Position numbers and translations under genes: made by a program. From an uncultured Verrucomicrobiota bacterium (GTDB lineage: Bacteria > Verrucomicrobiota > Verrucomicrobiia > Limisphaerales > UBA1319), in the NCBI GenBank assembly GCA_964458325.1, contig CAYWIM010000001.1, positions 4,975-68,974 of the forward strand: a DNA stretch of 64,000 bases, given 5' to 3'. Position 1 is the first letter of the stretch, and each line of letters starts with the position of its first letter. Shown here in pieces: positions 20,929 through 64,000 of the stretch. The notes beneath the pieces were generated by a model. It saw nothing but the letters and a program-made list of their open reading frames with translations, was not told where the DNA came from and ran no database searches.

Positions 20929-20941
20929 TCCGAGGTTGGCT

Positions 20942-24492: not shown

Positions 24493-24549
24493 GCTGTGAA
24501 AACCTTCGAGGTCCAGAAGAGGGCATGCCGGAGCGGGCCGGGGAAGGTC

Positions 24550-30000: not shown

Positions 30001-30617
30001 ACGACTGGCGCCTGTTCGATCTGTTCACGACGGCGCCTCATCCCAACGCCAGCCGCGGCCAGCTCTCCGTGAATCAGACGAACCTCGCGGCGTGGGCGGC
30101 GGTGCTGGGCGGCGTGTCGGTCGTGAGCAATGCGCCGGCGTCGGGTTTTCGGTCGAATGTCCTGACGGAGCTGTTCATCGAGCCGGACTCCGATGCGGTC
30201 CGGACGATGGTCCAAGACATCATGAACGCTCGGAGGATGCGTCCGAGCGGTTCATTCGACGCGGTGGGCCAGGTGCTGGCTGCGCCGGCGTTATCGGTGG
30301 CTTCCCCGTATTTGAATCGGGGGGATGCGAACCTGCCGGACGCCGCGGTGGAGCGGATCCCGCAGCAGATCATGTCGCTGCTGAAGCTGGGCGAGCCGCG
30401 GGTGGCGGTCTACGTGTTTGGGCAGGCGCTGAGGCCGGCCGACCGCTCGCTGGTGGTGGCGCCGGGCCAGCCTTATCATCTGCTCTGCACGAATTACCAG
30501 ATTACCGCCGAGGTCGCCGCCAAGCACGTGCTGCGGTTCGAGTATGGGCCGGTCTCGACCAACGTGACTCGGGTTCAAGTGATCCCCGAACGGTACCAAT
30601 TTCTGTCGAACGAGTGA
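27045..30617 (+). CDS. Giant GspK/PilX-like pseudopilin-associated protein, 1190 aa
   Basis: ATGA overlap with pseudopilin 5. The N-terminus RGVALVVTLIMLSVVTFMTVAFLALSRRE is a GspK/PilX-type uncleaved hydrophobic anchor without Glu5. The rest is a large beta-rich domain I do not recognise. Confidence 0.7.
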   Translation: MNRSAQRGVALVVTLIMLSVVTFMTVAFLALSRRERASVTVTTDQATASRMADIAVAQAQAEIVSRILARSNAFQFDFLVSTSYYQPAGFSPGVAHPENVHYERRADGNMLTEIDRIQNIANLQYHARPPVYIRTNSNLSAPLDFRFYLDFNRNGWFETNGPGLELDAQGRPIAGLSNFFVGDPEWRGILERPELPHSSSNRFVGRLTYLVLPLGKALDFNYIHNQAKRPINPAADGFARNQGPGTWEINLAAFLRALNTNQWDYLYRPALNQVSGGAAFSNATDILRYRYTNDYRGLASVASLFGPMGAVEHALDFVDGYSDGPRQTNTFPLLIDNDMPDRPWPGSDNPRLYGDVQELLDPFKTSIDFTNRLMTTFNRVNRLTSYDRYTLYRLLAQMGLDSDPEWSDKIHLNYRNDPGFTPTNFAAWPPLAFFTNAADRLLRRQLGLSLTNIPLYPTNFYSAPVHQLLQMAANIYDATTNRVWNGSTNLPSVFRPVFMYDGTNVFISGYVEATNTFFTNTWLDLNLAAHRNLLVENNGVLRSNVNLFGVPVVIGAKKGYPNFNEFSLQTAVLVSRKLEVRKPAPIARPNQTNQLYVMGISNVFGLEAWNSYTQTYARPIILRVTNVFTLTLLTNGVPFNRWSNVVSMATNVPAGTWAGQDFRLPLHTNVITLSNAAYSARLGRFLPNTVFEVNTNYDVPQWELGITNRLQYVALDPASARVIDFVNLENLTAGIDITAELIGNQSMLGGGEPSQAGSFWLTNRLGGGLQGVTIGVLNQINESLGQSGATNNALWQEYSQDPVSGFTKEKAIELFRVFVGLGPRNPARYPLVQMQTELGNSTSRQAPYSPVRKLYMNSTWQVNDPLVHYTWEDLLDLERTNNIQYAIPPTSTPTNSNLGAVNRRYRPWGGNPNISSDTNAYNTALKDPMVRQSDDWDFPTNKFPNVGWLGRVHRGTPWQTVYLKSSVAESNAWFFWSINPLSHPTNDWRLFDLFTTAPHPNASRGQLSVNQTNLAAWAAVLGGVSVVSNAPASGFRSNVLTELFIEPDSDAVRTMVQDIMNARRMRPSGSFDAVGQVLAAPALSVASPYLNRGDANLPDAAVERIPQQIMSLLKLGEPRVAVYVFGQALRPADRSLVVAPGQPYHLLCTNYQITAEVAAKHVLRFEYGPVSTNVTRVQVIPERYQFLSNE

Positions 30618-30632
30618 TATCTTCCGCCGCCT

Positions 30633-49900: not shown

Positions 49901-50844
49901 GTGACATTCGAGGATGCAAGCGTGCTCTGGCTGGCGGGTTGCTTGGTGATTGCCACGGGAATCCAGACTGTGAGGCTCGCGGGCGCGCTATCCACGAAAC
50001 CGCCGGAATTGCTGACGCGAACCGAATAGCTGCCGGCCTGGGAAGCTTGGACCGAGGAGAGGACGAGGCTCGCATTGGTCTGGCCAGCCAAGGGGGAACT
50101 ATTCCAGAGCCACTGGTAGAAAAGGGGAGCCGTCCCGCTGGCTGCAACACTGAATGTGATGGTATTACCGGCGATGGCGATTTGGGATTGCGGCGGTGTC
50201 AGGATGGACGGCGAGACAATCTCCCGAAGAACGAGCGACTCTGGAATGAGAAGCGGGACGCCCTGAGCGGGGAGAGAATTCGCCGATCCAAATCGCGCTT
50301 TGAACCCCTAAACCTCGTCTTGTGCAAGTCGTTGATATTCAAGCCAAGCGTTTGGAGGTTCATGGGGAGGGGGGGTGGTGCGGATAAAATTGCCGGTCGC
50401 TTGGGTGAAGATGGGCGAAAGAGCCTTGAGGGGGGCGGATTCGAAGGTTTCAGCCCCCTTCCAGATGCGGACCTGGAACTGGCCGGTCGAATAGCCAGTC
50501 AAATTGGTCATCAGCCCCACCAATCCCTCGAAATAGCCTTCGAAAACAAGGTTGAACCGTGTTGCACCGTAGGCATTGGGGATGGGCAGCATCGTGCCGC
50601 CGACCGGCCCGCCCCAGACCTCGACATAGACATCCGATCCGCTGGCATACACTCCGGGTTCCAGGAGGTAAAAGGGCCTGTCTGGAAGGAAATTGTTCAG
50701 ATCGATCGTGGCCTCGCCCCGGATCGAGGACGCGCAGGTCATCCAAGCGCACACAACCAGCGCAACAGCTGCGAACTGGCGCGAAAGCCGCCGGAGAATA
50801 TGGGTTTCACCGACACTGCAAGACACGCTGGTGCTCATGTTCAT
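46999..50844 (-). pseudogene. Large Ig-like / cadherin-like / Calx-beta surface protein, reading frame interrupted by one in-frame TAG (50308-50310)
   Basis: ORF 50308..50844 (signal peptide plus unknown domain) and ORF 46999..50091 are in the same frame. The 72 codons between TAG and the listed TTG have no stop and encode the first half of an Ig domain (ITFSVAASGTAPLFYQWLWNSSPLAGQTNASL). Downstream are Ig I-set-like repeats, cadherin-like repeats and two Calx-beta domains. Confidence 0.7.
49151..49618 (-). repeat. Tandem 288-bp (96-aa) duplication inside the surface-protein gene
   Basis: 49165-49268 is identical to 49453-49556 (104 bp), with similar flanks. It encodes LTYSL-x-x-APPTATI-x-S-x-TGLIQWTPSEAQGPSTNTFTVRVTDSGSPAATAS twice. 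Confidence 0.85.
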
Positions 50845-50891: not shown

Positions 50892-51086
50892 TATTATCTG
50901 ATTAGATGGCGGCACGCTCTCGAAATTCCGTGCCGATGTCAAACCAATTAGCTGTGGCCGTGCGGAGCGGGCGGAGCCTGTGCTTGATCCCGAGGGAGTT
51001 CCGTGTAGATAATCATCGGGTGATCCGCAAGACCTACCGGATTCGGGGTCGCCTGAATCGCGGCGGTTTTTCGGCAGGGGTTGACC

Positions 51087-52292
51087 ATGGCTGAATATCA
51101 ATATCAGGCCCAGAACGCCAAAGGCGAGCGCGTGACGGGGACGGTGACGGCGGACAACGAGGCGGGGGCGCTGCGATGGCTGGATGAGCACGAGCTGTTC
51201 CCGATTTCGGTCGCCGACATGTCGATGGGCAGCCGGCGCAGGCGCCGCGGGCGGCGCCGGGTCCCGATGCGCGACGTGGGGGTTTTTTACGGCCAGCTGG
51301 GGGATCTGATCGGGTCGGGCGTGCCGCTGTTGCGGGCGTTGGATTCGCTGATCCGATCGACCGTGAACGCGCGGTTGGCCGATGTAATCAAGGAAGTGCG
51401 GGCGGACGTGGCGGATGGCGATTCCTTGACGGAGGCGATGCGGCGGCATGGGAGCGTCTTTCCGCCGCTGCACACGGCGATGGTCCAGGCGGGCGAGCGG
51501 GCCAGCTTTCTGGAGGACGTGTTCCAGAACCTGTCGGCTTTTCTCGAGCGTCTGGATGAGCTGCGCAGCAAGGTCACGGGCGCGCTGATCTACCCGGTGC
51601 TGCTGACGACGGTGGGGGTGGCGGTGATGGTGGGGGCGCTGGTGTTGTTCGTGCCGCGGTTCGAGCCGTTGCTCGAGGGGGTGCCGCAAATGTTGCCGAC
51701 GCGGCTTTTATTTGCGCTGAGCCATGGGGTGAGGGGGTATTTTCCCCTGATGCTGGCGGCGCTGGGCTTTGGGGCATGGCTGCTGTGGTCGGCGTGGAGG
51801 AGCGATGCGGGCCAGCGCTGGATCGAGCGCTGGCGGCTTAAGGTCCCGGTGCTGGGCGTGGCTCTGCGGATGGTGGCCATCACCCGATTCTGCCGGATTT
51901 TGGGCACCATGCTGACCAACGGAGTGCCTCTGCTGCAGTCCTTGGCGATCAGCAAGGATGCCACCGGATCCCCATTGCTGGCGGACCGGATCGCCGAGGC
52001 GGCCGAGAATGTGCGGGCCGGCAAGCCGCTGACCGATCCCCTGCGGCGCGGAGGGCTCTTCCCGGACCAGGTCATCGCCATGATCAGCGTCGCCGAAGAA
52101 TCCAATCAGCTCGAGAAAGTGCTGCTGCACATCGCCGACACCGTCGAGCACCGCACCAATCAGCAGGTGGACCAGGCGATGCGATTGCTCGAGCCGCTGA
52201 TCCTTTGTGTGGTGGCGGCCGGGATCGGGTTCATGGCGCTGGGGCTGCTGCTGCCCATCTTCACGATGGCCAGCTCGCTTGGAATGAAGTAA
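51087..52292 (+). CDS. gspF: Type II secretion system platform protein GspF
   Basis: Two T2SSF repeats, three TM helices and the N-terminus MAEYQYQAQNAKGERVTG. The listed start 51081 is TTG; ATG is at 51087. Confidence 0.9.
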   Translation: MAEYQYQAQNAKGERVTGTVTADNEAGALRWLDEHELFPISVADMSMGSRRRRRGRRRVPMRDVGVFYGQLGDLIGSGVPLLRALDSLIRSTVNARLADVIKEVRADVADGDSLTEAMRRHGSVFPPLHTAMVQAGERASFLEDVFQNLSAFLERLDELRSKVTGALIYPVLLTTVGVAVMVGALVLFVPRFEPLLEGVPQMLPTRLLFALSHGVRGYFPLMLAALGFGAWLLWSAWRSDAGQRWIERWRLKVPVLGVALRMVAITRFCRILGTMLTNGVPLLQSLAISKDATGSPLLADRIAEAAENVRAGKPLTDPLRRGGLFPDQVIAMISVAEESNQLEKVLLHIADTVEHRTNQQVDQAMRLLEPLILCVVAAGIGFMALGLLLPIFTMASSLGMK

Positions 52293-52391: not shown

Positions 52392-52441
52392 GGAGATGTT
52401 GTGCGTCTATTGGATTGAACGGGAATGATTTAAAATCAAAT

Positions 52442-52960
52442 ATGCGTTTGCATGGTTTGGCGCGGCAGTTGTCAGCAAGGCGATCATCGGGGTTCACGCT
52501 GATCGAGGTGCTGCTGGTTATTGTGATTATCCTGATGCTGGCGGGTGCGCTGGTGGTGTTTGTGCTGCCCCAAAGGAAGGGAGCGGAGCGGAACACGACC
52601 ATGCTGCTGCTGACCCAGGTGCAGGCGGCGCTGGACACCTATCGGCTGAACGTCGGGCAGTATCCGACGGAAGACCAGGGCGGGCTGGGTGCGCTGCTGG
52701 TGAAGCCGACCTTCGAGAATGAGCGGATGGGGGAGAAATGGCAGGGGCCTTACCTGAAGCCCGGAACGCGGATCGAGGACGCCTGGGGCAACCCTTTGCG
52801 CTACGAGTTGGTCGACAAGACCCTGGCGACGGACACCGCCACGCCGGATTACAAGCTCTATTCGGTGGGGCCGGACAGCCAGCCGGACACCGAGGATGAC
52901 GTGAAGCTCTACGACGAATCGGAGTCCAACCAGGATTCCACGACGGTGTTGAATCCGTGA
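52442..52960 (+). CDS. gspG: Major pseudopilin GspG
   Basis: MRLHGLARQLSARRSSG|FTLIEVLLVIVIILMLAG, then YRLNVGQYPTEDQGGLGALL, AWGNPLRY and YSVGPDSQPDTEDD, matching the GspG pattern. The listed start 52415 is TTG. Confidence 0.9.
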   Translation: MRLHGLARQLSARRSSGFTLIEVLLVIVIILMLAGALVVFVLPQRKGAERNTTMLLLTQVQAALDTYRLNVGQYPTEDQGGLGALLVKPTFENERMGEKWQGPYLKPGTRIEDAWGNPLRYELVDKTLATDTATPDYKLYSVGPDSQPDTEDDVKLYDESESNQDSTTVLNP

Positions 52961-52980
52961 CCGGGACGGATCGAGAGCGA

Positions 52981-53670
52981 ATGCGAACCACTGGATCAGC
53001 GGGGCGACGGAGCGCAAGCAGCGGTTTCAGCTTGTTCGAGCTGCTGCTGGTGGCCTCGCTGCTGACCCTGTTTTTTGGGGCGGCGGTCTACACCTTGCAG
53101 CCCAGCCGGGGGGCGGCGCGCTTCGAGGACGGCGCATTGCGGTTCGAAGGCATGCTTCGGCTGGCTCGGGCGGAGGCGGCCAACTCGGGCAAACGGGTCC
53201 GGGTGGCATTCAGCCCGGATGAACAGCCAACGACCAATCAGTTCAGCCAGGTCAAACTGACGTGGGAGCCCGACCCGGTGGAAGGGCCGGACGTGTTCGA
53301 GGATCTGCCGAGGTATCGCTGGGATATCGAGCAATTGAACGAGGCCATCGGGATCGAGTCCGTGAACCGGATTGGTGAATGGCTTGGCGAAGGGATCCCG
53401 GAGAGCGCTGGAGCCGCCGAAGAGCTGTTGGCCGACGAGGAAAACCGCGGGCTCGAAGCCCCGCCGATCACATTCAATCCGGATGGTTCGAGCGACTCGG
53501 CCGAAGTGATTCTGGCGGCCCGGGATTCGGACGAGGCCCGGCGAGTCACGGTTCGCATCGTCGGGCTGACCGGAGCGATCTCGAGTGTCTGGCAATCCGA
53601 AGAGGCTGCGATGTGGACGGCGGAGGAGACGGCCGCCTCTGCGGGAGCGGTTTCGGCCGAGGCCGAATGA
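52981..53670 (+). CDS. GspH-like minor pseudopilin
   Basis: MRTTGSAGRRSASSG|FSLFELLLVASLLTLFFG. An alternative GTG 52957 overlaps the gspG stop (GTGA). Confidence 0.65.
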   Translation: MRTTGSAGRRSASSGFSLFELLLVASLLTLFFGAAVYTLQPSRGAARFEDGALRFEGMLRLARAEAANSGKRVRVAFSPDEQPTTNQFSQVKLTWEPDPVEGPDVFEDLPRYRWDIEQLNEAIGIESVNRIGEWLGEGIPESAGAAEELLADEENRGLEAPPITFNPDGSSDSAEVILAARDSDEARRVTVRIVGLTGAISSVWQSEEAAMWTAEETAASAGAVSAEAE

Positions 53671-53719: not shown

Positions 53720-54295
53720 ATGCGCGACGCGGATCCAGGGTGGAATTCTCCGAGCCAGGATTTGCGCCTTCGATTCCTGAACCGCGGAGCGATCTCCTTC
53801 CCAGAGCTGTCCTGCGGCAGCCGCCACGGAAACGCGGCGGAAGGCGGGGGCTCTTCTGCATCCGCGCGCGGTGGATGCCATTGGCGTTCGGGACGGGAAG
53901 GATCGGTATTGCTCGAAGTGGTATTGGCGTTGGCTTTGTTTGTGGCGGCGGCCGCGGTGATTGGCGGAGCGTTGCATTATTCGCTTTTGGAAGTCGAGCG
54001 ATTGCGGCTGAACGTTCACGCGGGCAACCTGGCGGTGACGGTCATGTCGGAGCTGCAGCTGGGGCTGCGATCGATCGAGACGGCCAGCCCGGAGACATTC
54101 GAGCCGCCGTTCGAAATGTGGAGCTTCGAGATCGATGTGGAACCGGCGGATGCCGCCCTGGAGCTGGAATATCCGCTGCGCCGGATCGAGGTGGCGATCC
54201 GGCATGTGGAGCGGCCGGTGGTGCGCCGGCTCGTGCGCTGGCTTCCCCTGCAATCCGATCCCGGTCCCGCCGCGCCAGCATCGACCATCCGGTAA
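53720..54295 (+). CDS. GspI-like minor pseudopilin with unusually long leader
   Basis: Mature-type N-terminus REG|SVLLEVVLALALFVAAAAVIGG, with Glu at +5. In-frame starts exist only at ATG 53687, ATG 53720 and TTG 53762, giving a 46-71 aa leader. The start is uncertain. Confidence 0.6.
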   Translation: MRDADPGWNSPSQDLRLRFLNRGAISFPELSCGSRHGNAAEGGGSSASARGGCHWRSGREGSVLLEVVLALALFVAAAAVIGGALHYSLLEVERLRLNVHAGNLAVTVMSELQLGLRSIETASPETFEPPFEMWSFEIDVEPADAALELEYPLRRIEVAIRHVERPVVRRLVRWLPLQSDPGPAAPASTIR

Positions 54296-54296
54296 A

Positions 54297-55097
54297 ATGC
54301 ATCTCCAGGTTTCCAGGCGCAGTGCGGCAAGCGGGTTCACCTTGATCGAGGTCGTGTTGGCACTGGCCATCGCGGCGGGGATGCTGACGGTGGTGCTGTT
54401 CTTTTATGCGAAGGCGGAACGGCTGCGAAACGACTTGCTGCGGGAAGCATCCCGGGTCTCGGCAGCTCGGTTGATCCTGGATCGGCTGACGGCGGAATTG
54501 AACACGGCGCAAGGATGCCGGGCCTTCCCGGAGGGTCTGCGGGGCGAAAGCGGCCAGATCCAATTCGCCCGTCCGGATCTTCCGGTTTTGGCATCGGGAT
54601 CCAATCCGATGTCGGAGGCGCCGGGGTCTGCGCCGTCGGTTTTCCGGCGGATGACATACGGTTTGGGGGGCGGTGGAGTGGCGCGCACCGAGGAGCAGAT
54701 GGCCGGGCCCGATCCCGTCCCCTCCGCCGTCGATTCGGGAGCGGAGCCGGGCGACTTCGCGACGAACGAGACCAACGAATGGACGATGGGACAAACCGAG
54801 GACAAGGCGGCGGCGCCGCGGTTGGAGCTGGTGGTCGATCCGTTGCGTTTCGCCCGGTTTCGATATTGGGATGGCCAGGGATGGATGGATATGTGGAACG
54901 GGCCTGCGCCTCCGGCGGCGGTGGAGATCGTGTTGGGGGGAGAGCCGTTGCCGGAGGGATTGACGCCCGAGGAATACCCCTATGAATACTATCGGCGGAT
55001 CGTCTATTTGCCAGGGCATCGCATGGGGCTGACCGAGACGGAAGGCGCTCCGGATCCGGAATCGACCTCCGAGGAACCGCAGGGAGGCGCGCCGTGA
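54297..55097 (+). CDS. GspJ-like minor pseudopilin
   Basis: MHLQVSRRSAASG|FTLIEVVLALAIAAGMLTVVLFF. The ATG lies 1 nt after the gspI-like stop. Trimmed from ORF start 54135. Confidence 0.65.
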   Translation: MHLQVSRRSAASGFTLIEVVLALAIAAGMLTVVLFFYAKAERLRNDLLREASRVSAARLILDRLTAELNTAQGCRAFPEGLRGESGQIQFARPDLPVLASGSNPMSEAPGSAPSVFRRMTYGLGGGGVARTEEQMAGPDPVPSAVDSGAEPGDFATNETNEWTMGQTEDKAAAPRLELVVDPLRFARFRYWDGQGWMDMWNGPAPPAAVEIVLGGEPLPEGLTPEEYPYEYYRRIVYLPGHRMGLTETEGAPDPESTSEEPQGGAP

Positions 55098-56512
55098 TGC
55101 GGACGATCCAGGATAAAAGATCCACGCCGGCGGGGGGCGGGTTTGTGCTTCTGCTGGTCCTGGTGGTGGTCATGCTGGCGTCGATGGTGGCGGTGAGCTT
55201 GATGTTCCTGTTGGGGGCGGAGAAGACGGCCTCGGCGACAGGTTGGGAAGGGGAGCAGGCGTGGGCGGTGGCGCTGACAGGGTTGGACCGGGCGATCCAG
55301 GTGGCGCGGCGATCCGCGCGGGAGGAAGCGGCCTGGCGGGACAATCCGGCTGAATTCCGGGATCAACTGGTGCATGAAGATGGATTGCAGCGTTGGTTCT
55401 TCACGGTCTACTCGCCTGGAGACGATGAGAGCGGCTGGGTTCGATTCGGGTTGACCGATGAAGCGTCCAAACTCAACATTCTGCGCTCGAGTCCGGCCAT
55501 GCTCGATGCTTTATCGGGCATGAGGATGGAGGGGGGCGAGGGATGGAACGGGGCGTCGCCGGCCCCCGCGACGGGGGAGGAAGGCCGGGGGTCTGGATCC
55601 CGGTCGGGGATGGCGACGAACGAGTTGGCGGGAGCCGGCGGGCACTGGTCGTGCGCGGACGAATACCTGCAAAGCTCCGGGGTGAGCGCCCTGGCCTGGT
55701 ACGGTGAGGACGCGAACTTCAACGGCCGATTGGACGCAAACGAAAACGATGGCGAGACGCAGTGGCCGCCGGACAACCAGGACAGCCGGCTGGACCGAGG
55801 GCTGCGACAGGACCTGACCGTGCACAGCTACGATGTCAATGAGGATGGATCGGGCCAGCCCCGCATCCGCCTGAACGATCCGCAAGCCGACTGGGCTGCG
55901 GCCGGGCTGCCGGCGAGCGTCGGGGATTACGTCGCAGCCATGGGGCGGGCGGGGCAGTCGATCGAGCATCCCGCCGATCTCCTCGAAGCGGAGGGCACGT
56001 TTCCCGCCGCGCGCGGCTCCGGCCAGGAGACCGTGCGCGCAGGTGTCGGGAAAGACGAATTGCCGGCTCTGTTGGATCGTTGCACGGTGTCGGACCAGGA
56101 GCGTCTGGAAGGGCTGATCAACGTGAACACGGCGCCGGCGGCCGTGTTGCGGACTCTTCCGGGGGTGGATGAGGCGCTGGCGGAGGCCATCGTGGCGCGG
56201 CGATCGAACCTGAGCCAGGAGGATCGGGGGACGATCGCCTGGCTGTATCAGGAAGGGCTGATGAACGCAGACCAATTCAAGGGGGTGGCTCCGCTGCTGA
56301 CCACGCGCAGCCTGCAGTTCCACTGTTACGTTGCGGGTTTCAATCGGCCGGGCCGCCGCCATCGAATCCTCGAAGCGATCTTCGATGTGGCGCCGGAGGC
56401 GCCGCGGGTGGTGTTCTTGCGGGATGTGACGCGATCGGGGCTCCCGCTGAATCTGGCGGGGGATGAGCCGGAGACCGTTGCCTGGAGTCCAGGCGGGGGG
56501 GGATCGCGATGA
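55097..56512 (+). CDS. gspK: GspK-like minor pseudopilin
   Basis: Uncleaved hydrophobic N-terminus GGGFVLLLVLVVVMLASMVAVSL and a C-terminal helix-hairpin-helix segment INVNTAPAAVLRTLPGVDEALAEAIVARR typical of GspK. ATG 55097 overlaps the gspJ-like stop (gTGATG). Confidence 0.75.
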   Translation: MRTIQDKRSTPAGGGFVLLLVLVVVMLASMVAVSLMFLLGAEKTASATGWEGEQAWAVALTGLDRAIQVARRSAREEAAWRDNPAEFRDQLVHEDGLQRWFFTVYSPGDDESGWVRFGLTDEASKLNILRSSPAMLDALSGMRMEGGEGWNGASPAPATGEEGRGSGSRSGMATNELAGAGGHWSCADEYLQSSGVSALAWYGEDANFNGRLDANENDGETQWPPDNQDSRLDRGLRQDLTVHSYDVNEDGSGQPRIRLNDPQADWAAAGLPASVGDYVAAMGRAGQSIEHPADLLEAEGTFPAARGSGQETVRAGVGKDELPALLDRCTVSDQERLEGLINVNTAPAAVLRTLPGVDEALAEAIVARRSNLSQEDRGTIAWLYQEGLMNADQFKGVAPLLTTRSLQFHCYVAGFNRPGRRHRILEAIFDVAPEAPRVVFLRDVTRSGLPLNLAGDEPETVAWSPGGGGSR

Positions 56513-58560
56513 GCGTCTTCCTCCTGGGATCCGGGCTGTGGGGCGAGGTCCGGCGGTGCGGCCGGCGCGGCGCTTGGTGGCGGTGGCAGCGGACGGTGTC
56601 CACGGCCGTGGTGGTCGAGGATCGCGATTTGCACCTGGCGCAGGCGGGCCGGCGCGGCGGCCAATCCGATCTGTTGCGGCTGGAGCATCGAATCCTGGCT
56701 TCGCCTGTGCGCCCTCTGGTCACCGATCCGGAGGCGGCGGGGAAGGAATTGGCGGAGTCATTGCGGCGGATGAAGCTGGATCGCGGGCTGGTGGCCCTGG
56801 CGGTTCCGCGCGAGCTGGCGGTTTTCAGGAGCCTGTGGTTGCCGATGCCGGAACGGGAAGAGGAATTGGCCGCCATGGTCCATTTCCAGATCCACAAGGA
56901 TCTTCCCTTTCGACCCGAGGACGCCGTGATCGATTTTTTCCCGTTGCCGGCGCTGGCGAAGGCGGGCGGGCCCCCGGCACCGGCAGGGGGGGCGGTGGGC
57001 GATGGCGCACGGGGGGAGGCGGAGGGGGCGAGCGTCGAGGTTTTCGCGGCCGTGGTGAAGCGGGAAGTGATCGCATGGTTCGAGAAAATGGCGGCGGCGG
57101 CGGGGGTTCGGCTGGCGGCCTTGGGCCTGGAATCGGCGGCTCACGCGAGAGCGCTGGCGGGACTGGACGATGCATCCGACGGAGGCGCGACGGCCTTGGT
57201 TCGGCTGCGGTCCCGAGAGGTGTTGATCGAGGTGTTTCAGGGGCCGGTTCTGCGCTTCAGCAAACTGGCGACGCTTTCGGGCGGGAGCGAAGCCACGGCG
57301 GAACCCGTGAGGGCTTCAGCCAATGGATCGGAGACGGCGACCGATTCAACCTGGGGGCCTGCGGTTCGGACTGAGATTATCCGGGGATTGCACGGGTACG
57401 AGGGTGTGCCAGGCCATCCGCCGATCCGCTGTGTCTTCGTGACTGGCCGCACCGGGGGTGAGGCGGAGGTGATGGCCGAGCTGACGGCTCGGCATGGGCT
57501 GCCGGCTCGAATGCTGGATGAGGATTTGCTGCGGCGGCAATGCCCGCTGGCGGCCGGGATCCATCCCGAGGGTTTGGGTGCAGCCGGGCTGGCGTGGGGG
57601 ATGTTGGACGATGCGGGATTGCCGCTGGATTTCCTGCATCCGCGCCGGCCGGCGGCGGGCCGGCGGAGCCGGGCATGGACGCGGTGGCTGCTGGCGGCCC
57701 TGATCGGCGCGTCCCTGGTGGGCGTGTGGGGAGTGCGCTCGCACGGCCTCGACCAGCGCCGGAGCATTCAGGACCAACTGCGGATGCAGGTCGAGCAGGG
57801 CGAAAAGAGCCGGCCGCTTTTCCGGGAAACGCGCCTGAAAGCGCGCGTCGTCGAGGGCTGGTTGAACGAACGGCGGCAGTGGCTGGATTCCTGCGCGCAT
57901 CTGAGCTCGCTGTTGCCAGGCGCAGGGGATTTGTACATCACGTCCCTATCCACCGGCACGAAGGGGACGATCTATCTGGCGGTGCGGGCGCGATCCGGGG
58001 ATCTCCTGGCTCAACTGGACCGGCAATTGCGGGCGGCGGGTTATGACTTGAAGCCGCTGGCGGTCACCCCCAGCGCCGACCCTCACGGATACGGCTTCCA
58101 GACCACCGTGGAACTGAAGCTGCCCGAGAAGTTTGAGGTCAACGTCGCCGATCTCCGAGCGCCGGATCGCCCCGCCGATGACGCATCCTTGGATGCGGCG
58201 GCGGCTCGAGCGCGTTCGGCGCAAGGGCCGCAGCGGGCCCAGCCGAACCAGGCGCCCGCGGAACCGCCTGGCGCGCGGATCCGCTCGGGTCCGGAGCCGC
58301 AGCGGCCGTCGAGCGCCTCGCCTTCGGAACCGTCTGGCGCGCGGATGCGTTCGGATCCGGAGCCGCAGCGGCCGTCGAACCAGCCGTCCGCGGAACCGCC
58401 TGGCGCGCGGATGCGCTCGGGTCCGGAGCCGCAGCGGCCGTCGAACGCCTCGCCTCCGGAACCGTCCGGGGGTCGTCCGCGCATGGGGCCGGGGCAGCGG
58501 GGGGCGTCGAATGGGCCGGCGGGTGAGGAGGCGCGCCCCTGGAGGAGGGCCAGGCAATGA
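56509..58560 (+). CDS. GspL-like assembly protein: PilM-like cytoplasmic domain + TM + PilN-like periplasmic domain + Pro-rich repeat tail (683 aa)
   Basis: ATGA overlap with gspK. PilM-like LAVPRELAVFRSLWLPMPEREEELAAMVHFQIHKDLPFRPEDAVIDFFPL, a single TM WLLAALIGASLVGVWGV, a PilN-like coiled coil plus ferredoxin-like segment, then a 22-aa Pro/Arg/Ser repeat tail. Confidence 0.7.
   Translation: MSVFLLGSGLWGEVRRCGRRGAWWRWQRTVSTAVVVEDRDLHLAQAGRRGGQSDLLRLEHRILASPVRPLVTDPEAAGKELAESLRRMKLDRGLVALAVPRELAVFRSLWLPMPEREEELAAMVHFQIHKDLPFRPEDAVIDFFPLPALAKAGGPPAPAGGAVGDGARGEAEGASVEVFAAVVKREVIAWFEKMAAAAGVRLAALGLESAAHARALAGLDDASDGGATALVRLRSREVLIEVFQGPVLRFSKLATLSGGSEATAEPVRASANGSETATDSTWGPAVRTEIIRGLHGYEGVPGHPPIRCVFVTGRTGGEAEVMAELTARHGLPARMLDEDLLRRQCPLAAGIHPEGLGAAGLAWGMLDDAGLPLDFLHPRRPAAGRRSRAWTRWLLAALIGASLVGVWGVRSHGLDQRRSIQDQLRMQVEQGEKSRPLFRETRLKARVVEGWLNERRQWLDSCAHLSSLLPGAGDLYITSLSTGTKGTIYLAVRARSGDLLAQLDRQLRAAGYDLKPLAVTPSADPHGYGFQTTVELKLPEKFEVNVADLRAPDRPADDASLDAAAARARSAQGPQRAQPNQAPAEPPGARIRSGPEPQRPSSASPSEPSGARMRSDPEPQRPSNQPSAEPPGARMRSGPEPQRPSNASPPEPSGGRPRMGPGQRGASNGPAGEEARPWRRARQ
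58261..58480 (+). repeat. 66-bp (22-aa) tandem repeat, about 3.3 copies, in the gspL-like 3' end
   Basis: Units start at 58261, 58327, 58393 and 58459 (the last partial). They encode EPPGARIRSGPEPQRPSSASPS / EPSGARMRSDPEPQRPSNQPSA / EPPGARMRSGPEPQRPSNASPP / EPSGGRPRMGP. Confidence 0.9.
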
Positions 58561-59558
58561 ACCGGCGCGAAAAGACATTGGCGATGGCGGTGGGATGTCT
58601 GGGGGTGGCGTTGGCGTTGGTTTGGCTGTTCCATTGGCTGGTGGTTAAGCCCTGGCGCGACGCCGATCGCCAGACCGCCAGCTTGCGGGATCGTCTGCAG
58701 CAGGTCGCGGAAGAGCGGCAGGCATTCTTCACGGCCCAGCGCTACCTCGAGGGAGTGGTCACTAACACCTTCCATTCGGATCCCGAAGTGGCGGCCGCTA
58801 CGGCCGGGAAACTCCTCACGGACCTGATTTCCCAGCTCGGATTGTCCGACGCTCAATTCACCCGGATCCCATCCGGACCGCGGCGTCTGCGAGGCGCCCA
58901 GGAGGTCGGGTGGACGGTCCAGGGCGAAGGGCCGATGGCGCGGATCGTCGACCTGTTGTTCTCTTTGGAGAAGGGCAGCCTGGTTCATCGGATCGACAAC
59001 CTGGTGCTCACGGCGGCGGATCGGCCGGGGCGGGTCAAGGCCCGTTTCCGCTATCTGACCCTGGTGGTGGATCCGCCGCCGGCCGCCATTCCTCTGGATC
59101 CGGCGCCCGAAGTGGCGATGGACCGGTCCGCGCGGGGCCGGTACGATCTCATCGTCGATCGGGATCTATGGCGGCCTTACATTCGGCGGGCGGTGGCCGC
59201 ATCGGAGCCGTCGGCTCCTCGATCGATGTCGCCCCCATCAACGGATTCGGGGCCGAGACTGAACCTGTTGAAGGTGGTGTCGCTGTCCGAGTGGCGGGGT
59301 GTGCCCGAGGTGCACATCTGCGACACAACGTCGATGCGGATCCAGCGGTATCATCCGGGTGACGAGCTGGCCGGGGCCCGGGTTGTGATGATTGATTACC
59401 GGCGGCGTCCGCGTTCGGACAAGCCGGATCTGTGGTCGGCCAGCCGAGTGATCCTGCGCTGGGGGAGCGAGTATTGGGCCGTCGAACACGGTCAAACCCT
59501 GGCTGATAAACATCTGCTTTCGCCCGGCGATTTGCCGCCGGACATGCCGGAATCTTGA
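58557..59558 (+). CDS. GspM/PilO-like protein fused to a PilP/GspC-HR-like C-terminal domain (333 aa)
   Basis: ATGA overlap with the gspL-like gene. N-terminal TM plus coiled coil plus PilO/GspM-like fold (GPMARIVDLLFSLEKGSLVHRIDNLVL). The C-terminal LKVVSLSEWRGVPEVHICDTTSMRIQRYHPGDELAGARVVMIDYR...RVILRWGSEYWAV matches the PilP/GspC HR beta-sandwich pattern. Confidence 0.6.
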   Translation: MNRREKTLAMAVGCLGVALALVWLFHWLVVKPWRDADRQTASLRDRLQQVAEERQAFFTAQRYLEGVVTNTFHSDPEVAAATAGKLLTDLISQLGLSDAQFTRIPSGPRRLRGAQEVGWTVQGEGPMARIVDLLFSLEKGSLVHRIDNLVLTAADRPGRVKARFRYLTLVVDPPPAAIPLDPAPEVAMDRSARGRYDLIVDRDLWRPYIRRAVAASEPSAPRSMSPPSTDSGPRLNLLKVVSLSEWRGVPEVHICDTTSMRIQRYHPGDELAGARVVMIDYRRRPRSDKPDLWSASRVILRWGSEYWAVEHGQTLADKHLLSPGDLPPDMPES

Positions 59559-59572
59559 ACGGTCATTGGCTT

Positions 59573-62500
59573 ATGAACAACGCGACATGGATATTGCTGG
59601 TGACGCTCCTGGTCCTGCACGGTGACGGACCGGTGGCGGCGGCTGAGGCGGCGGCGGAGAGCGGCGCAATCGCAACGCCGTCCCCGGCGGTCGTGGCCGC
59701 GGCCACGAACGCGCTCGCATCGGCCAGCGGCAGCCAGACCAACCTGGCGGCAGCGGCTAGCGGCAGCCAGACCAACCTGGCGGCAGCGGCCAGTGGGAGC
59801 CAGACGAACCTGGCGGCAGCGGCCAGTGGGAGCCAGACGAATCTGGCGGCAGTGGCCAGTGGGAGCCAAACGAACCTAGCGGTTTCTCTGGATGCAGCGA
59901 AGCCATCCGCTTCGTCGCGCGACATCCGTTTCCAGTTCGACGGCATACCTTACACGGACGTGGTGACGCGGTTCGCGCAGATGGTGAACAAGCCGTTGCT
60001 GGGAGATTTGAAGATCGACGGTACGCTGCAGTTTATCGATCCGCAGCCGTATACTTACAGCGAGGCGCTGGAGACACTGAACTTGATCCTGGCCACCAAG
60101 GGGATGATCCTGGTCGAGACGGGGCGCTATCTGCGGCTGGTGCCCATGAAGGAGCTGGCCCAGATGCCGCTCAAGATATTCCGGGGGCTGGATCGGACGG
60201 GGGAGACCTCGCCTGGCGAGGTGGTGACGGTGGTGCTTTCCCTGCAGAACCTCGAGGCGCAGGAGGTCTCGCAGACCATCACGCCCATGCTTTCGAGCGC
60301 CGGCTCGGTGGCGCCGCTCTCTCGCGGTCGCGGGGTGATCATCACCGACCAGCTGGGCAACATCCGCCGGATCCGCGATCTGCTTGCGGAGGTGGACACG
60401 GCGTCGCCGGTGCAGCGGCAGATGCGGACCTACACCCTGCTGCACTCTTCGGGGGCGGTGGTCTCGGACCTGATCAACAAGACATTTGGCCAGGCGACGG
60501 CCCCCAAGCGGGTCGAGTTCAACCAGCAATCGCGGCGGTACGAGGTGCTGCCGCCCGACCCCAGCGATTACGTGACGGCCATATTCGACGAGGCATCGCG
60601 GACGATGGTGCTGTATGGGCCGGCGGAGCGGGTCGATCTGGCCGAGAGCCTGATCAAGCGATTCGAGGATGAGGCCGGCTCGAAGGCGGGCGAGGTGCGC
60701 GTCTACCAGTCGCAGTCGATTCCGGCGGCGGATCTGGCGCGGCTGGTGCGCCAGGCGGTTCCGGGCGTGGCGGCCGAGAATGAATCGGGCAGCTCGGCGG
60801 CGACGAAGGCGCGGGTCATCGCGGATCCCGTGTCCAACCGGATCATCGTGACCGCGCCTGTGGCGGGGCAGCTGGACGCCATCGAAGCCCTGATCAAGCG
60901 GCTGGACGTGGGCAGCGACGGCGCCTTTCGGCAGCTGCGCACGCTGGCGCTCAAGCACACGTCGGCCACCGCCATGGCCAGCATGATCAGCCAGCTGTTC
61001 GCCCGTCAATATCGTGTGGAAGATCCTCATCAGCGCGTCATGGTCGCGGCGGCGCCGGACGATCGCACGCTGCTGATCGACGCCACAGGCACGACCTTCG
61101 ACAAGATCGAGGAGATGGTGCGGGGCCTGGATGTCGAGTCGGCGCGCGGCAGCTACGAGGTGCGAACCTACCGGCTGACCGGCTCGAACGCGGGCGAGCT
61201 GGCGCAGACGCTGGGCCGGCTGTATTCCGACCGCCAGGACCGCCGCCGGTTCGAGGAGAGCGGCGGGCTGTCGCCCCGGTTCGAGGCGGACACGGGGGCG
61301 AACGTCCTGATTGTGGCGGCGCCTCGAGTACATTTCGAGGCGATCGAAAAGCTGATCGAGGAGCTCCGCGCCCCCGCCGAGGTGGCGCAGGAAATCCGCA
61401 CCTTTCGCCTGCAGCACACGAGCGCGGAGCAGATGGCGTCCGTGCTCGAGAGCTTGCTGCGGGGCGAGCGCGGGATGAGCGGCTATCGATCCTATCAGCC
61501 ATACTATCCCCGATCCGGATCGGAGGTGGGGCGATTGCGGGTGATGGCGGCTCCGGGGGCCAACGCGGTTGTGGTTCAGGGGGCGCCGGAGAAACTGACG
61601 CAGGCCGAGGCCCTCATCCGCGAACTCGATCGCGCGGATGCCGCCGCAAGCCTCGAGGTGCGGACCTACCGGCTGACCGGCTCGAACGCGGGCGAGCTGG
61701 CCCAGACCCTGGCCCGGCTCTTCGGCGAGCGGCAGGGGCAGCGCCGGGCCGAGCCGGGAGCGATGGCGCCGCGGTTCGAGGCCGACACGGGCGCCAACGC
61801 GCTGATCGTGGCGGCGCAGCGCGAGCAGTTCGTGACGATCGAGAAGCTCATCGAGGAGCTGCGCACGCCGGCGGTGGTGACGAACGAGATCCGGACCTTC
61901 CGCCTGCGTCACACCACGGCTGATCAGCTGACGCCGGTGCTCGAGACGATGCTGCGCGGCGATGGCCGGTCCTATTCGGGCTATCGGTCGTACTACCCGC
62001 AGTATTCGTCCTACGGATCCCGGGGAGGAAGCGATGCGACCGGGTTGCGGATCAGCGGGGTGCCGGGAGCCAACGTCGTGGTGATTCAGGGGGCGCCGGA
62101 GAAACTGACGCAGGCCGAGGCGTTGATCCAGGCGCTGGATCAGCCTGAGAGCGCGACGAGCCTCGAGGTGCGGACCTACCGGCTGACCGGCTCGAATGCG
62201 GGCGAGCTGGCCCAGACCCTGGCCCGGCTTTTTGGCGAGCGGCAGGGGCAGCGCCGGGCCGAGCCGGGAGCGATGGCGCCGCGGTTCGAGGCCGACACAG
62301 GCGCCAACGCGCTGATCGTGGCGGCGCAGCGCGAGCAGTTCGAGGGGATCGAAAAGCTGATCGAGGAGCTCCGCGCGCCGGCGGTGGTGACGAATGAGAT
62401 CCGGACCTTCCGCCTGCGGCACACCACGGCCGACCAGGTGACGCCGGTGCTCGAGACGATGCTGCGCGGCGATGGCCGGTCCTATTCAGGCTATCGGTCG

Positions 62501-64000
62501 TATTCCTCGCCCTATGGCTATTCGCCCTACGGATCGCGAGGAGGGAGCGATACGACTGGGTTGCGGATCAGCGGGGTGCCGGGCGCCAACGTCGTGGTGA
62601 TTCAGGGGCCGTCCGAGAAACTGACGCAGGCCGAGGCGTTGATCCAGGCGCTGGATCAGCCCGAAAGCGCGACGAGCCTCGAGGTGCGGACTTACCGGCT
62701 GAGCGGATCGAACGCGGCCGAGCTGGCGCAGTCCCTGGCCCGGCTTTTTGGCGAGCGGCAGGGGCAGCGCCGGGCCGAGCCGGGAGCGATGGCGCCGCGG
62801 TTCGAGGCCGACACGGGCGCCAACGCGCTGATCGTGGCGGCGCAGCGCGAGCAGTTCGAGACGATCGAGAAGCTCATCGAGGAGCTGCGCGCGCCGGCGG
62901 TGACGGCCAACGAGATCCGGACCTTCCGCCTGCGGCACACCACAGCCGACCAGCTGACGCCGGTGCTCGAGGCGATGCTGCGCAGCGATGGACGGTCCTA
63001 TTCGGGGTATCGGCCGTATTCCTCGCCGTATGGCTACTCGCCCTACGGATCGCGGGGAGGAAGCGATGCCAGCGGGCTCCGGATCAGCAGCGTGCCCGGA
63101 TCCAACGCCGTGGTGGTTCAGGGTCCGTCCGAGAAACTGGCGCAGGCCGAGGCGCTGATCCAGGCGCTGGATCAGCCCGAGAGCGCATCGAGCTTCGAGG
63201 TGCGGACGTATCGGCTGACGAGCTCGAGCGCGGGTGATCTGGCGCAGTCCCTGGCGCGCCTGTTCAGCGAGCGGCAGGGGCAGCGGCGGGACGAGTCCAG
63301 GCTGCTGGCGCCGCGGTTCGAGGCGGACATGGGGGCCAACGCGCTGATCGTGGCGGCCGCGCGGGAGCAGTTCGAGGGGATCGAAAAGCTGATCGAGGAG
63401 CTCCGCGCGCAGAGCGAGGCGGCGGTCGAGATGCGCACGTTTCATCTGCAGTACACGACCGCCGATCAGATGACGATGGTGCTCGAGACGATGCTGCGCA
63501 GCGATGGCCGGTCGTCGTCGGGATATCGTCCTTATTACTCGCCGTATGGGGGTTTCCGGGGCGGGGGCGGCGATGCGACCGGGCTGCGGATCAGCGGGGT
63601 ATCGGGCGCCAACGCTGTGGTGGTTCAGGGCCCGCCCGCCAAGGTGGCGCAGGCCGAAGCCCTGGTCCGGGACCTGGACCGGCCGGATTCCGACCAGGCC
63701 ACAACCCTTCAAACCGTTCAGCTCAGGAGGGCGCAGGCCGAGCCGCTGTCCGAAGCGATCGCGCGGATTCTGAGCGGGCGGGCGCCGCCGAACCAGCCGC
63801 GCCGGGTGCAGGTCAGCGCCGTGCCGGGGTCGAACAGCCTGCTGGTGGATGGGCCGCCGGCCGAGGTGAAGGAAGTGATCCAGATCATCCGCCAGCTCGA
63901 CGAGGAGAGCGTGGATGGCGGCATCGAGATCCGGGTCTACCAGCTCGAGAATGGCGAGGCGCGCGAGCTGTCGCGCGTGGTCAGCGAGCTGCTGCAGAGC
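59573..64000 (+). CDS. gspD: Secretin (GspD/PilQ family), N-terminal 1476 codons; 3' end outside window
   Basis: Not in the ORF track because it has no stop in the window. I translated it by hand from ATG 59573. It has a signal peptide MNNATWILLVTLLVLHG, an N0-like domain (IRFQFDGIPYTDVVTRFAQMVNKPLL...GRYLRLVP), then >=16 Secretin_N-like modules ending in ...LI-x-x-LD. The frame is open through 64000. Confidence 0.85.
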   Translation, partial: MNNATWILLVTLLVLHGDGPVAAAEAAAESGAIATPSPAVVAAATNALASASGSQTNLAAAASGSQTNLAAAASGSQTNLAAAASGSQTNLAAVASGSQTNLAVSLDAAKPSASSRDIRFQFDGIPYTDVVTRFAQMVNKPLLGDLKIDGTLQFIDPQPYTYSEALETLNLILATKGMILVETGRYLRLVPMKELAQMPLKIFRGLDRTGETSPGEVVTVVLSLQNLEAQEVSQTITPMLSSAGSVAPLSRGRGVIITDQLGNIRRIRDLLAEVDTASPVQRQMRTYTLLHSSGAVVSDLINKTFGQATAPKRVEFNQQSRRYEVLPPDPSDYVTAIFDEASRTMVLYGPAERVDLAESLIKRFEDEAGSKAGEVRVYQSQSIPAADLARLVRQAVPGVAAENESGSSAATKARVIADPVSNRIIVTAPVAGQLDAIEALIKRLDVGSDGAFRQLRTLALKHTSATAMASMISQLFARQYRVEDPHQRVMVAAAPDDRTLLIDATGTTFDKIEEMVRGLDVESARGSYEVRTYRLTGSNAGELAQTLGRLYSDRQDRRRFEESGGLSPRFEADTGANVLIVAAPRVHFEAIEKLIEELRAPAEVAQEIRTFRLQHTSAEQMASVLESLLRGERGMSGYRSYQPYYPRSGSEVGRLRVMAAPGANAVVVQGAPEKLTQAEALIRELDRADAAASLEVRTYRLTGSNAGELAQTLARLFGERQGQRRAEPGAMAPRFEADTGANALIVAAQREQFVTIEKLIEELRTPAVVTNEIRTFRLRHTTADQLTPVLETMLRGDGRSYSGYRSYYPQYSSYGSRGGSDATGLRISGVPGANVVVIQGAPEKLTQAEALIQALDQPESATSLEVRTYRLTGSNAGELAQTLARLFGERQGQRRAEPGAMAPRFEADTGANALIVAAQREQFEGIEKLIEELRAPAVVTNEIRTFRLRHTTADQVTPVLETMLRGDGRSYSGYRSYSSPYGYSPYGSRGGSDTTGLRISGVPGANVVVIQGPSEKLTQAEALIQALDQPESATSLEVRTYRLSGSNAAELAQSLARLFGERQGQRRAEPGAMAPRFEADTGANALIVAAQREQFETIEKLIEELRAPAVTANEIRTFRLRHTTADQLTPVLEAMLRSDGRSYSGYRPYSSPYGYSPYGSRGGSDASGLRISSVPGSNAVVVQGPSEKLAQAEALIQALDQPESASSFEVRTYRLTSSSAGDLAQSLARLFSERQGQRRDESRLLAPRFEADMGANALIVAAAREQFEGIEKLIEELRAQSEAAVEMRTFHLQYTTADQMTMVLETMLRSDGRSSSGYRPYYSPYGGFRGGGGDATGLRISGVSGANAVVVQGPPAKVAQAEALVRDLDRPDSDQATTLQTVQLRRAQAEPLSEAIARILSGRAPPNQPRRVQVSAVPGSNSLLVDGPPAEVKEVIQIIRQLDEESVDGGIEIRVYQLENGEARELSRVVSELLQS
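59723..59887 (+). repeat. 33-bp (11-aa) tandem repeat x5 near the secretin N-terminus
   Basis: Five head-to-tail units starting at 59723, 59756, 59789, 59822 and 59855. They encode ASGSQTNLAAA x4 and then a degenerate fifth unit (ASGSQTNLAVS). Confidence 0.95.
61151..63700 (+). repeat. ~510-bp (~170-aa) tandem repeat x5 encoding paired secretin N-domain modules
   Basis: Unit starts (S-x-EVRTYRL) at 61151, 61649, 62159, 62675 and 63191, giving periods of 498/510/516/516 bp. Copies 2-4 are nearly identical at the DNA level. The periodic antisense ORFs in the track (61168, 61666, 62176, 62692, 63172) mirror the same period. Confidence 0.95.

Follow-up and report, generated by a model that had tools for sequence, protein, structure and literature searches.

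The window analysed here is a stretch of 64,000 nucleotides from an uncultured Verrucomicrobiota bacterium whose relatives are labelled Limisphaerales. At its end, on the plus strand (59573-64000), it carries the 5' 4.4 kb of a giant GspD-type secretin gene. From its open frame, 15 Secretin_N matches, the GspD model TIGR02517 and a collinear orthologue, we identify it as the beginning of the gene for the outer-membrane secretin in a type II secretion system (T2SS)-like operon in the type IV filament superfamily. The + frame starts with the ATG at 59573 and is uninterrupted to the window end at 64000 (1,476 codons). The GC content at third codon positions (GC3) was 0.87 in this coding frame, whereas the two alternative frames gave 0.69 and 0.50. 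Two open reading frames (ORFs) on the minus strand overlap the secretin (59876-62422, 848 aa; 62486-63712, 408 aa). They are most likely artefacts of high GC content, because GC3, hidden Markov model (HMM) matches and the ratio of nonsynonymous to synonymous substitution rates (dN/dS) all back the + frame.

When the window product was searched against Pfam, Secretin_N (PF03958) matched with E=1e-166 in 15 stretches, each of them significant. For finer delimitation, a module HMM was built from the repeat unit described below and iterated on the window protein and its relatives. It found 15 complete Secretin_N modules between aa 219 and 1448 and a 16th (aa 1452-1476) that is cut by the window end; four of these lie before a repeat array, ten inside it and two after it, and the linkers between modules are 2-4 residues long. 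A preliminary description of this DNA had reported the same frame of 1476 codons, an N0-like domain followed by four modules, a ten-module array and at least two more modules, and the Secretin_N-like nature of the repeated modules. The frame was found again, the layout was reproduced exactly by the module HMM, and the last claim agreed with the Pfam result. Further Pfam matches, to KH_SLS1_1, KH_1, Ank_2, NIPSNAP and beta-lactamase, were disregarded as cross-matches of the small alpha/beta module or of a low-complexity loop.

The protein begins with a probable signal peptide, MNNATWILLVTLLVLHGDGPVAAA (59573-59644, +), read from the sequence as a hydrophobic core followed by an Ala-rich cleavage-like region. 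Between the signal peptide and N0, Tandem Repeats Finder (TRF) detected a repeat at 59717-59882 (+; period 33, 5.0 copies, 91% matches) that encodes a linker of five AAAASGSQTNL units. Within the gene, constraint is weakest in this linker (dN/dS 0.45). The predicted N0 domain (about aa 121-210; 59933-60202, +) was placed by a sub-cutoff match to PF21305 and by the alignment of TIGR02517, positions 2-271 of which correspond to aa 121-410 of the window protein; our own N0 HMM found this domain in most giant homologues (see below). Four non-repeated Secretin_N modules follow (aa 219-280, 284-370, 374-450 and 455-525; 60227-61147, +), with i-Evalues of 4e-9 to 8e-19 in the module HMM. Downstream of the array, the same HMM placed two more modules at 63707-64000 (+), one complete (aa 1379-1448) and one cut (aa 1452-1476). 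The GspD equivalog TIGR02517 (NCBIfam) scored 463.1 bits on the window fragment and passed its cutoff of 351.35, a score that is inflated by multiple module matches (9 stretches in the window fragment, 21 in the orthologue).

When species representatives of GTDB were scanned with the non-repetitive N-terminal part as query, 12 loci were found. The closest, L001 (contig JAKLFB010000025.1 of the Verrucomicrobia metagenome-assembled genome (MAG) RA.bin147), aligns collinearly with the window (88-90% identical nucleotides), its positions 8526-14092 matching window 58422-64000 end to end with no length change; its signal peptide-to-N0 linker is a diverged SQTN-repeat version. Measured against L001, dN/dS was 0.17 for the whole fragment, 0.15 for the array and 0.08 for aa 121-528, values that indicate purifying selection on the gene, array included.

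The L001 orthologue (P0027) runs to its stop codon as a protein of 3,443 aa and 371 kDa. The module HMM counted 34 modules in it, joined by linkers of 2-6 residues with no large gaps and followed by a 296-aa tail; single modules reach 122 aa. After the part equivalent to the window come 18 more modules and then the pore domain. By Pfam, the orthologue has 32 Secretin_N stretches and a complete PF00263 at aa 3211-3376 (169 bits, E=7.5e-50). TIGR02517 gave 1,191 bits, with one stretch that runs through the last modules and the pore (positions 126-592 of the 600 in the profile), and the SctC model also passed on the full-length protein with a score below that of the GspD model. The public entry HOX03795.1, of 3,443 aa, has the same five-unit array at 91% amino-acid identity. 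The preliminary description had counted at least 16 modules and expected a secretin C-domain beyond the window end. Its count stands, since the window encodes 15 complete modules and a truncated one and the full-length orthologue has 34, and the C-domain is present as PF00263 in this collinear orthologue at ~90% nucleotide identity, so that the objection of a missing C-domain downstream fails in the closest relative.

Copies, age and loops of the five-unit array

The array consists of five head-to-tail copies of a ~170-aa unit of two modules and occupies 61157-63703. The units start at nt 61157, 61655, 62165, 62681 and 63197, giving spacings of 498, 510, 516 and 516 nt. TRF missed the array because the ~510-nt period exceeds its 500-nt limit, and the array was located by a repeat search and custom scripts instead. 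All units are read on the plus strand. Unit 1 (61157-61654, 166 aa) is an old copy, with 70-73% nucleotide identity to units 2-5 and 89.8% to unit 1 of L001. Unit 5 (63197-63703, 169 aa) is likewise old, with 77% identity to units 2-4 and 92.5% to unit 5 of L001. Unit 2 (61655-62164, 170 aa) shares 93.3% with unit 3 and 91.2% with unit 2 of L001, and unit 4 (62681-63196, 172 aa) shares 90.2-90.3% with units 2 and 3 and 90.3% with unit 4 of L001. Unit 3 (62165-62680, 172 aa), at 88.4% to its positional orthologue in L001, appeared in block comparison as a mosaic of unit-2-like and unit-4-like tracts.

Two kinds of unit can be told apart, the middle three copies and the outer two. Units 2-4 of the window are 90.2-93.3% identical to each other at synonymous distances (dS) of 0.17-0.23. 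Unit 1 differs from the remaining units by dS of 0.6-0.8, and in a codon-level comparison units 1 and 5 showed 68-79% identity and dS of 0.5-1.1 to the others. Units 2-4 of L001 are likewise 90-93% identical to each other, with dS up to 0.32. When units 2-4 of the window were compared with their positional orthologues, identity was 88.4-91.2% and dS 0.24-0.36; identity within a genome thus equals or exceeds identity to the positional orthologue.

Conversion mosaics were assessed in blocks of 75 nt, window versus L001. Unit 3 of L001 is identical to its own unit 4 over nt 1-75 and 151-225 and matches unit 2 over nt 301-519. Unit 3 of the window follows unit 2 in most blocks, but follows unit 4 in the loop block 301-375. 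A loop indel variant, SSPYGYSPY, occurs in units 3 and 4 of the window and in unit 4 only of L001. These comparisons indicate that the five copies are older than the split between the window lineage and L001, and that units 2-4 have been homogenised by gene conversion or unequal crossing-over. Because the mosaic tracts are specific to each genome, the exchange has gone on past the split and is ongoing.

Tandem repeats of ~510 nt at 90-93% identity are hard for short-read assemblers, and it should be asked whether the copy number was inflated or collapsed in assembly. The contig of one relative (P0188) indeed breaks inside the array, and another relative, L005, carries four-module copies that are 99-100% identical, through recent duplication or as an artefact. 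The array is nevertheless not an assembly artefact, because L001 and four further independent assemblies in its 90%-identity protein cluster keep exactly five units at identical spacing. The units of the window, moreover, are 7-30% different from one another and can each be paired with a separate orthologue, and the frame remains open at the array dN/dS given above. We regard an assembly origin as very improbable. The preliminary description had placed the array at 61151-63700, within a few bases of the span found here, with five copies of which copies 2-4 are nearly identical; all of this was borne out, the copy number by L001 and the four other assemblies. Its proposal of recent duplication or gene conversion is supported in a sharper form, with copies that predate the split and genome-specific conversion tracts in units 2-4.

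The structure of unit 3 was predicted with AlphaFold2 from an alignment of 16 sequences. The model has two beta-alpha-beta-beta-alpha modules (E-H-E-E-H twice) at a mean predicted local distance difference test score (pLDDT) of 70.9. Foldseek returned the periplasmic domains of XcpQ, GspD, ExeD, EpsD and InvG as best PDB matches with probability 1.0 (0.99-1.0 over the matches to InvG). The low TM-scores of these matches probably reflect a different predicted angle between the two modules.

The second module of each unit has a loop between helix 1 and strand 2. In unit 3 it reads GDGRSYSGYRSYSSPYGYSPYGSRGGSDTTG (62468-62560, +) and is rich in Tyr, Ser, Gly and Arg; RSYSGYRSYSSPYGYSPYGSRGGSD is a Tyr-rich loop peptide of this kind. 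Equivalent loops were assigned by coordinates and composition to 61463-61531, 61958-62044, 62984-63076 and 63500-63583 (+). The loops are 23-31 residues long and 78-90% Tyr/Ser/Gly/Arg/Pro, in line with the preliminary description, which reported a Tyr/Ser/Gly/Pro-rich loop of variable length in alternate modules. Tyr makes up 18% of the loops versus 3% of the whole protein. In the model, the loop of unit 3 (unit residues 104-130) has pLDDT <50 and is predicted to be disordered. The two-module unit is single-copy in most relatives, where Arg, Tyr or Trp, Gly and Ser abound in the loop at the matching position (for example RRYRGVSYGNYG, SQRWRGSRGWRGGSGS and RYGYSSYRYYGSSRSNR). The window lineage has therefore amplified one particular loop-bearing module pair, which would give it five loop-decorated rings in a row. 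The five-unit, two-module array itself is specific to the lineage of the window and L001.

Giant secretins and the operon around the window gene

The array is not what makes this secretin long. Relatives with no recent internal duplication (L008, L009, L010 and L012; ~3,220 aa) have 33 modules, and a second group of relatives (P0001-P0008; 2,290-2,560 aa) has 21-24; from these counts the five-fold expansion is not the cause of the length. Independent block duplications of other sizes were found in other lineages: four modules three times in L005 and in P0012, four modules twice in L006, and six modules twice in L002. In L005 (CAZODO010000003.1), modules 16-19 and 20-23 are the blocks that are 99-100% identical as protein, whether they were duplicated very recently in the genome or during assembly; this protein has more than 47 modules and its ORF extends past the edge of the locus.

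We searched 1.84 billion representative proteins with a profile made from the modules of the window; 12,562 proteins matched at E<=1e-3, and 1,077 of them reached E<=1e-30. The 150 top matches are 1,821-5,532 aa long with 20-60 matched stretches. Our own HMMs found N0 in 129 and the pore domain in 130 of these 150 giant homologues. Since N0 stands near the N-terminus and the pore domain at the C-terminus, 116 of the 150 look complete, and these have 27-57 modules (median 40). The largest proteins are P0190 (OQB85541.1, Planctomycetes bacterium ADurb.Bin126; 6,805 aa) and P0195 (6,885 aa), both with N0, 75 contiguous modules and the pore; these 75-module proteins have tandem block duplications with a four-module period. 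The window gene is therefore more extreme than the preliminary description could show, with 34 modules counted on its orthologue, but also less singular, being a mid-sized member of a large class spread over the Planctomycetota-Verrucomicrobiota-Chlamydiota (PVC) bacteria.

All names on the giant secretins are MAGs of Verrucomicrobiota or of Planctomycetota/Phycisphaerae, save a few labels that are probably mis-binned. No cultured carrier was identified among the sources, and a search with the C-terminal third named MAGs only; that search also found shorter complete forms of 1,500-2,000 aa on long Planctomycetota contigs. Automatic annotations read 'secretin N-terminal domain-containing protein' or 'type II secretion system protein D', and MFP4104932.1 (4,756 aa) is one such automatically annotated member with the same architecture. 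Three sequences of the P0027 cluster (HRZ46703.1, HRZ92689.1 and HRZ92226.1) are near-identical copies of the Verrucomicrobiota giant secretin labelled 'Candidatus Paceibacterota bacterium'. Bacteria of the candidate phyla radiation are not expected to possess an outer membrane, and for this reason the label probably stems from an error in binning or taxonomy.

In two loci from nanopore-sequenced MFD03726 MAGs (L003 and L004; P0014, P0212, P0004 and P0222), the gene is split into pieces of ~970 aa and 1,000-1,800 aa. Past aa ~880, the sequence of P0014 no longer makes sense, pointing to frameshift errors in the assemblies and not to genes that are really split. Apart from these apparent frameshifts, nothing specific speaks for a pseudogene or a runaway repeat expansion, a non-functional giant ORF in decay. 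Such decay would have to be reconciled with dN/dS of 0.08-0.17, a 3,443-codon frame that is intact in several assemblies, a conserved operon and more than 100 complete homologues over two phyla, and the frameshifts are confined to the nanopore assemblies, where they are probably sequencing errors. We give this explanation next to no credence.

An operon on the plus strand ends with the secretin gene. The first gene encodes a GspF/PilC-type platform protein (51081-52292; PF00482 T2SSF, E=6e-57, two stretches). It is followed by the major pseudopilin GspG (52415-52960; PF08334 T2SSG, E=2e-18, and N_methyl), the minor pseudopilin GspH (52957-53670; PF12019 GspH, E=1e-7), a probable GspI-like minor pseudopilin (53870-54295; weak, sub-cutoff TIGR01707 gspI, E=1e-3), a minor pseudopilin that is GspJ-like by position (54135-55097; N_methyl motif SGFTLIEVV at aa 63-81) and a GspK-like minor pseudopilin (55094-56512; PF03934 T2SSK, 27.0 bits vs 24.2 cutoff). 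The start codon of the GspI-like ORF is uncertain, though its hydrophobic segment GSVLLEVVLALALF looks prepilin-like, and the true start of the GspJ-like ORF is probably internal. Next come a PilM/GspL-like protein of 683 aa (56509-58560; weak TIGR01175 pilM at aa 70-144, E=4e-7), with a hydrophobic segment at ~aa 400-420 and a Pro-rich repeat tail, and a GspM-like protein of 333 aa (58557-59558; NF040576 GspM, 49.8 bits, cutoff 60, at aa 7-163; PF10741 T2SSM_b weak) with an extra C-terminal domain of ~140 aa. GspF, G, H and K pass their Pfam cutoffs; the I-like, J-like, M-like and PilM/L-like matches are weak. The order of genes upstream of the giant secretin is kept in nearly all of the 12 related loci. 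The PilM/GspL-like gene stands at the same position in all relatives examined, and the GspM-like gene directly precedes the secretin gene at 11 loci out of 12, the exception being L006 with ~7 kb between the two.

Two features of the inner-membrane partners were observed beside these assignments. The C-terminus of the PilM/GspL-like protein (~58276-58518, +) is a periplasmic tail of ~4 copies of a ~19-aa Pro/Arg/Ser-rich repeat, EPPGARxRSGPEPQRPSxxSP, which could be an extended linker reaching toward the N0 of the secretin. The extra C-terminal ~140 aa of the GspM-like protein (~59124-59555, +) have no family match. By position, this domain could be a GspC/PilP-like homology region (HR) domain that binds N0; such a role would explain the lack of a separate GspC.

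A second type IV filament cluster, with no secretin of its own, lies at 16298-26081 on the plus strand. It encodes a PilB/GspE-like ATPase (16298-18058), a PilT-like ATPase (18104-19198), a second PilB/GspE-like ATPase (19225-20928), PilC/GspF (20936-22261) and two prepilin-type proteins (24496-25296 and 25293-26081). An ATPase of this cluster, 30 kb upstream, may serve the ATPase-less GspF-to-GspD operon.

The second cluster also bears on the question of whether the channel belongs functionally to a protein-secreting T2SS at all, or is a PilQ-like secretin of a pilus or fibre, or a nozzle for polymer or slime. Its two PilB/GspE ATPases, PilT and PilC with no secretin beside them would suit the latter two, as would the weak match of the L-like gene to PilM and the score of the PilQ model TIGR02515 on the full-length orthologue (466.9 vs 284). 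T2SS-family secretins have in addition been implicated in slime secretion (PMC12475490). The GspD model, however, scored far higher on the same protein (1,191 bits) and was aligned through the pore domain, although discrimination between GspD and PilQ is soft because all scores are inflated by the repeated modules. On the window fragment the PilQ model fell below its cutoff (129.8 vs 284.35), Pfam found no AMIN domain in the window protein, and the operon holds the T2SS-type set GspG, H, I-like, J-like, K and M-like. A pilus secretin or nozzle is therefore an improbable reading of the gene, and we keep to a GspD-type secretin.

Directly downstream of the second cluster (27045-39317, +) are an ORF of 1,190 aa with no Pfam match and a protein of 2,894 aa with subtilase S8, P-domain, PPC and LamG matches; both are possible large secreted or surface substrates. 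The cluster and these large ORFs recall the giant genes reported beside T2SS-like loci of Omnitrophota, which encode other proteins and not giant secretins (10.1101/2023.11.21.568195). On the minus strand, a protein of 1,030 aa with immunoglobulin-like, He_PIG and Calx-beta domains (46999-50091) adjoins the secretin operon upstream in divergent orientation, and it is kept beside the operon in L001. Over the window, GC skew is positive (mostly +0.1 to +0.3; near zero at ~28-38 kb), GC content is 59-69% and nearly all large genes are on the plus strand. Skew and gene strands suggest that the window belongs to one replichore with a strong strand bias.

Proposed assembly and comparison with known secretins

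We consider it probable that the gene encodes a GspD-type secretin in which the uninterrupted string of N-modules stacks as coaxial rings into a long trans-periplasmic conduit. Like all studied secretins, the protein would assemble as a 12-16-mer, each layer of modules forming one ring. Linkers of only 2-6 residues imply that the rings should stack coaxially, here beneath the pore. The rise was assumed to be 3-4 nm per ring, with the upper value taken from Thermus PilQ (350 A for the pore and six rings) and the lower value, 3 nm, being that of GspD-like rings. At this rise the conduit would measure ~50-65 nm for the part encoded in the window and ~105-140 nm for the full protein, and 13-15 full-length subunits would have a mass of ~5-6 MDa. 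The distal N0 ring would dock, as N0 does in known secretins, on an inner-membrane platform that includes the GspM-like and PilM/L-like proteins encoded just upstream. A pseudopilus would then drive export through a protected tube over an unusually wide or variable periplasm, as proposed for PVC bacteria, and tandem duplication of blocks of two, four or six modules would alter the length of the tube between lineages. For the Tyr-rich loops, candidate roles are a lumenal filter, a contact between rings and a contact with the cell wall.

The preliminary description had likewise expected a far longer conduit through the periplasm, which is still deduced from the number of domains. Several points weigh against such a conduit. 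The stacking of rings and the length of ~100 nm are extrapolated from secretins of four to six rings, and the implied 100-250 nm far exceed ordinary periplasms. The inner-membrane partners encoded in the operon are not correspondingly elongated, and Pfam found no GspE ATPase, GspC or prepilin peptidase (GspO) between 50 and 64 kb of the window. The AlphaFold2 model of unit 3 is of moderate confidence (pLDDT 70.9), and the PF21305 match to N0 at aa 128-185 stays just below cutoff, with 24.0 bits against a gathering score of 27. The assignment of the exact window gene as a secretin leans on a relative at ~90% nucleotide and 91% amino-acid identity, as the pore domain lies outside the window.

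These points leave some room for the main alternative arrangement, in which the string of N-modules is not one closed tube. Only the modules near the pore would form rings, and the others would be a flexible or partly folded-back appendage serving as a multi-layered vestibule, as a spacer or tether that copes with a varying distance between the membranes, or as a scaffold to which the cell wall or partner proteins bind. Solved secretins often show poor order in their distal N0 and N1 rings. Linear stacking gives lengths (105-140 nm here, >225 nm for 75 modules) that exceed measured ordinary periplasms, the inner-membrane partners are not elongated, and many modules have long and probably disordered insertions, with modules to 122 aa in L001 and loop pLDDT <50. 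Folding back, however, finds little room in linkers of 2-6 residues, and the ring-forming fold is kept in every module under purifying selection (dN/dS 0.08-0.15). The platform-docking N0 is retained at the far end in 129 of the 150 giant homologues, which makes sense if the distal end reaches the inner membrane, and the extra modules of Thermus PilQ do give extra rings (PMC5745081). We take the appendage to be possible, though on the unlikely side.

The stacked conduit that we prefer can be extended to a more general proposal. In PVC bacteria, the number of modules would be an evolvable ruler: tubes of 20-75 rings, ~60 to >200 nm long, would let a T2SS work over an enlarged, variable periplasm and be retuned by block duplication and gene conversion. 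The five loop-bearing rings of the window lineage, with 12-15 disordered loops each, could form a cohesive meshwork that acts as a lumenal filter or plug or as an external collar that binds the cell wall. Taken jointly, these claims are speculative, and we would not expect all of them to hold. We know of no secretin with a low-complexity loop meshwork as filter, plug or collar. An enlarged periplasm, the former 'paryphoplasm', has been proposed for Planctomycetes and some Verrucomicrobia (PMC3422733).

With 34 contiguous ring modules, and in a class of more than 100 sequence clusters that reaches 75 modules and ~6,900 aa, the secretin is 5-12 times larger than the largest characterised one. 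If the modules stack as in known secretins, they would build tubes of 5-11 MDa and at least 100 nm, among the largest machines of the bacterial envelope. Module number would then be a countable genomic readout of the envelope geometry of PVC bacteria, a group with a cell plan under dispute for decades. Such tubes would also pose questions of mechanism: the working of a pseudopilus piston over a distance of 100 nm, the entry point of substrates and the passage through peptidoglycan. The family is, besides, a clean natural case of length evolution by tandem duplication of domain blocks with concerted evolution. These prospects are tempered by an assembled structure that is wholly inferred.

Secretins rank with the best-studied machines of the bacterial outer membrane. 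To our knowledge, all structural and mechanistic models of them assume a short vestibule of three to six rings that reaches the inner-membrane platform over a periplasm of ~25-35 nm. The longest solved secretin chain that we found has 761 aa. Among open-access papers and bioRxiv preprints we found no account of secretins with tens of N-modules, in PVC bacteria or otherwise, and within that literature the class is apparently undescribed, with its sequences already public under automatic names.

The closest known system is GspD, which has N0 and three modules (N1-N3) in ~650 aa. A predicted N0, the beta-alpha-beta-beta-alpha Secretin_N modules and, in the orthologue, the PF00263 pore link the giant secretin to GspD (PulD, EpsD and XcpQ; TIGR02517; PDB 5WQ7, 5WQ8 and 6HCG). 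GspD is also the best-scoring model, and the position of the secretin as last gene after homologues of GspF, G, H, I, J, K, L and M resembles a GspD operon. In contrast to the N0 and three modules of GspD, the orthologue has N0 and 34 modules in its 3,443 aa, and the window alone accounts for at least 16 modules. The operon differs from those of GspD systems in having no GspC, GspE or GspO, and the protein differs in the disordered Tyr/Arg/Gly/Ser-rich loop on five of its modules. InvG/SctC of the type III secretion system (T3SS) and proteins with the ring-building motif share the N-module fold and the principle of stacked oligomeric rings. SctC, however, has N0, N1 and N3 only, no T3SS context was seen here, and the SctC model scored below the GspD model.

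The largest characterised secretin is the PilQ of Thermus thermophilus, a protein of 757 aa that forms six rings in a complex 350 A long; its authors link the rings to the spanning of a wide periplasm (PMC5745081). In Thermus PilQ, N-modules past the usual four form extra stacked rings, and we propose the same functional logic for the giant secretin. Thermus PilQ serves a type IVa pilus, whereas the gene described here stands in a T2SS-like context with modules for ~35 rings, in a class that reaches 75, and its module number changes by recent tandem duplication of blocks. The fold, the family and the operon are thus familiar, and the module architecture is far beyond anything characterised.

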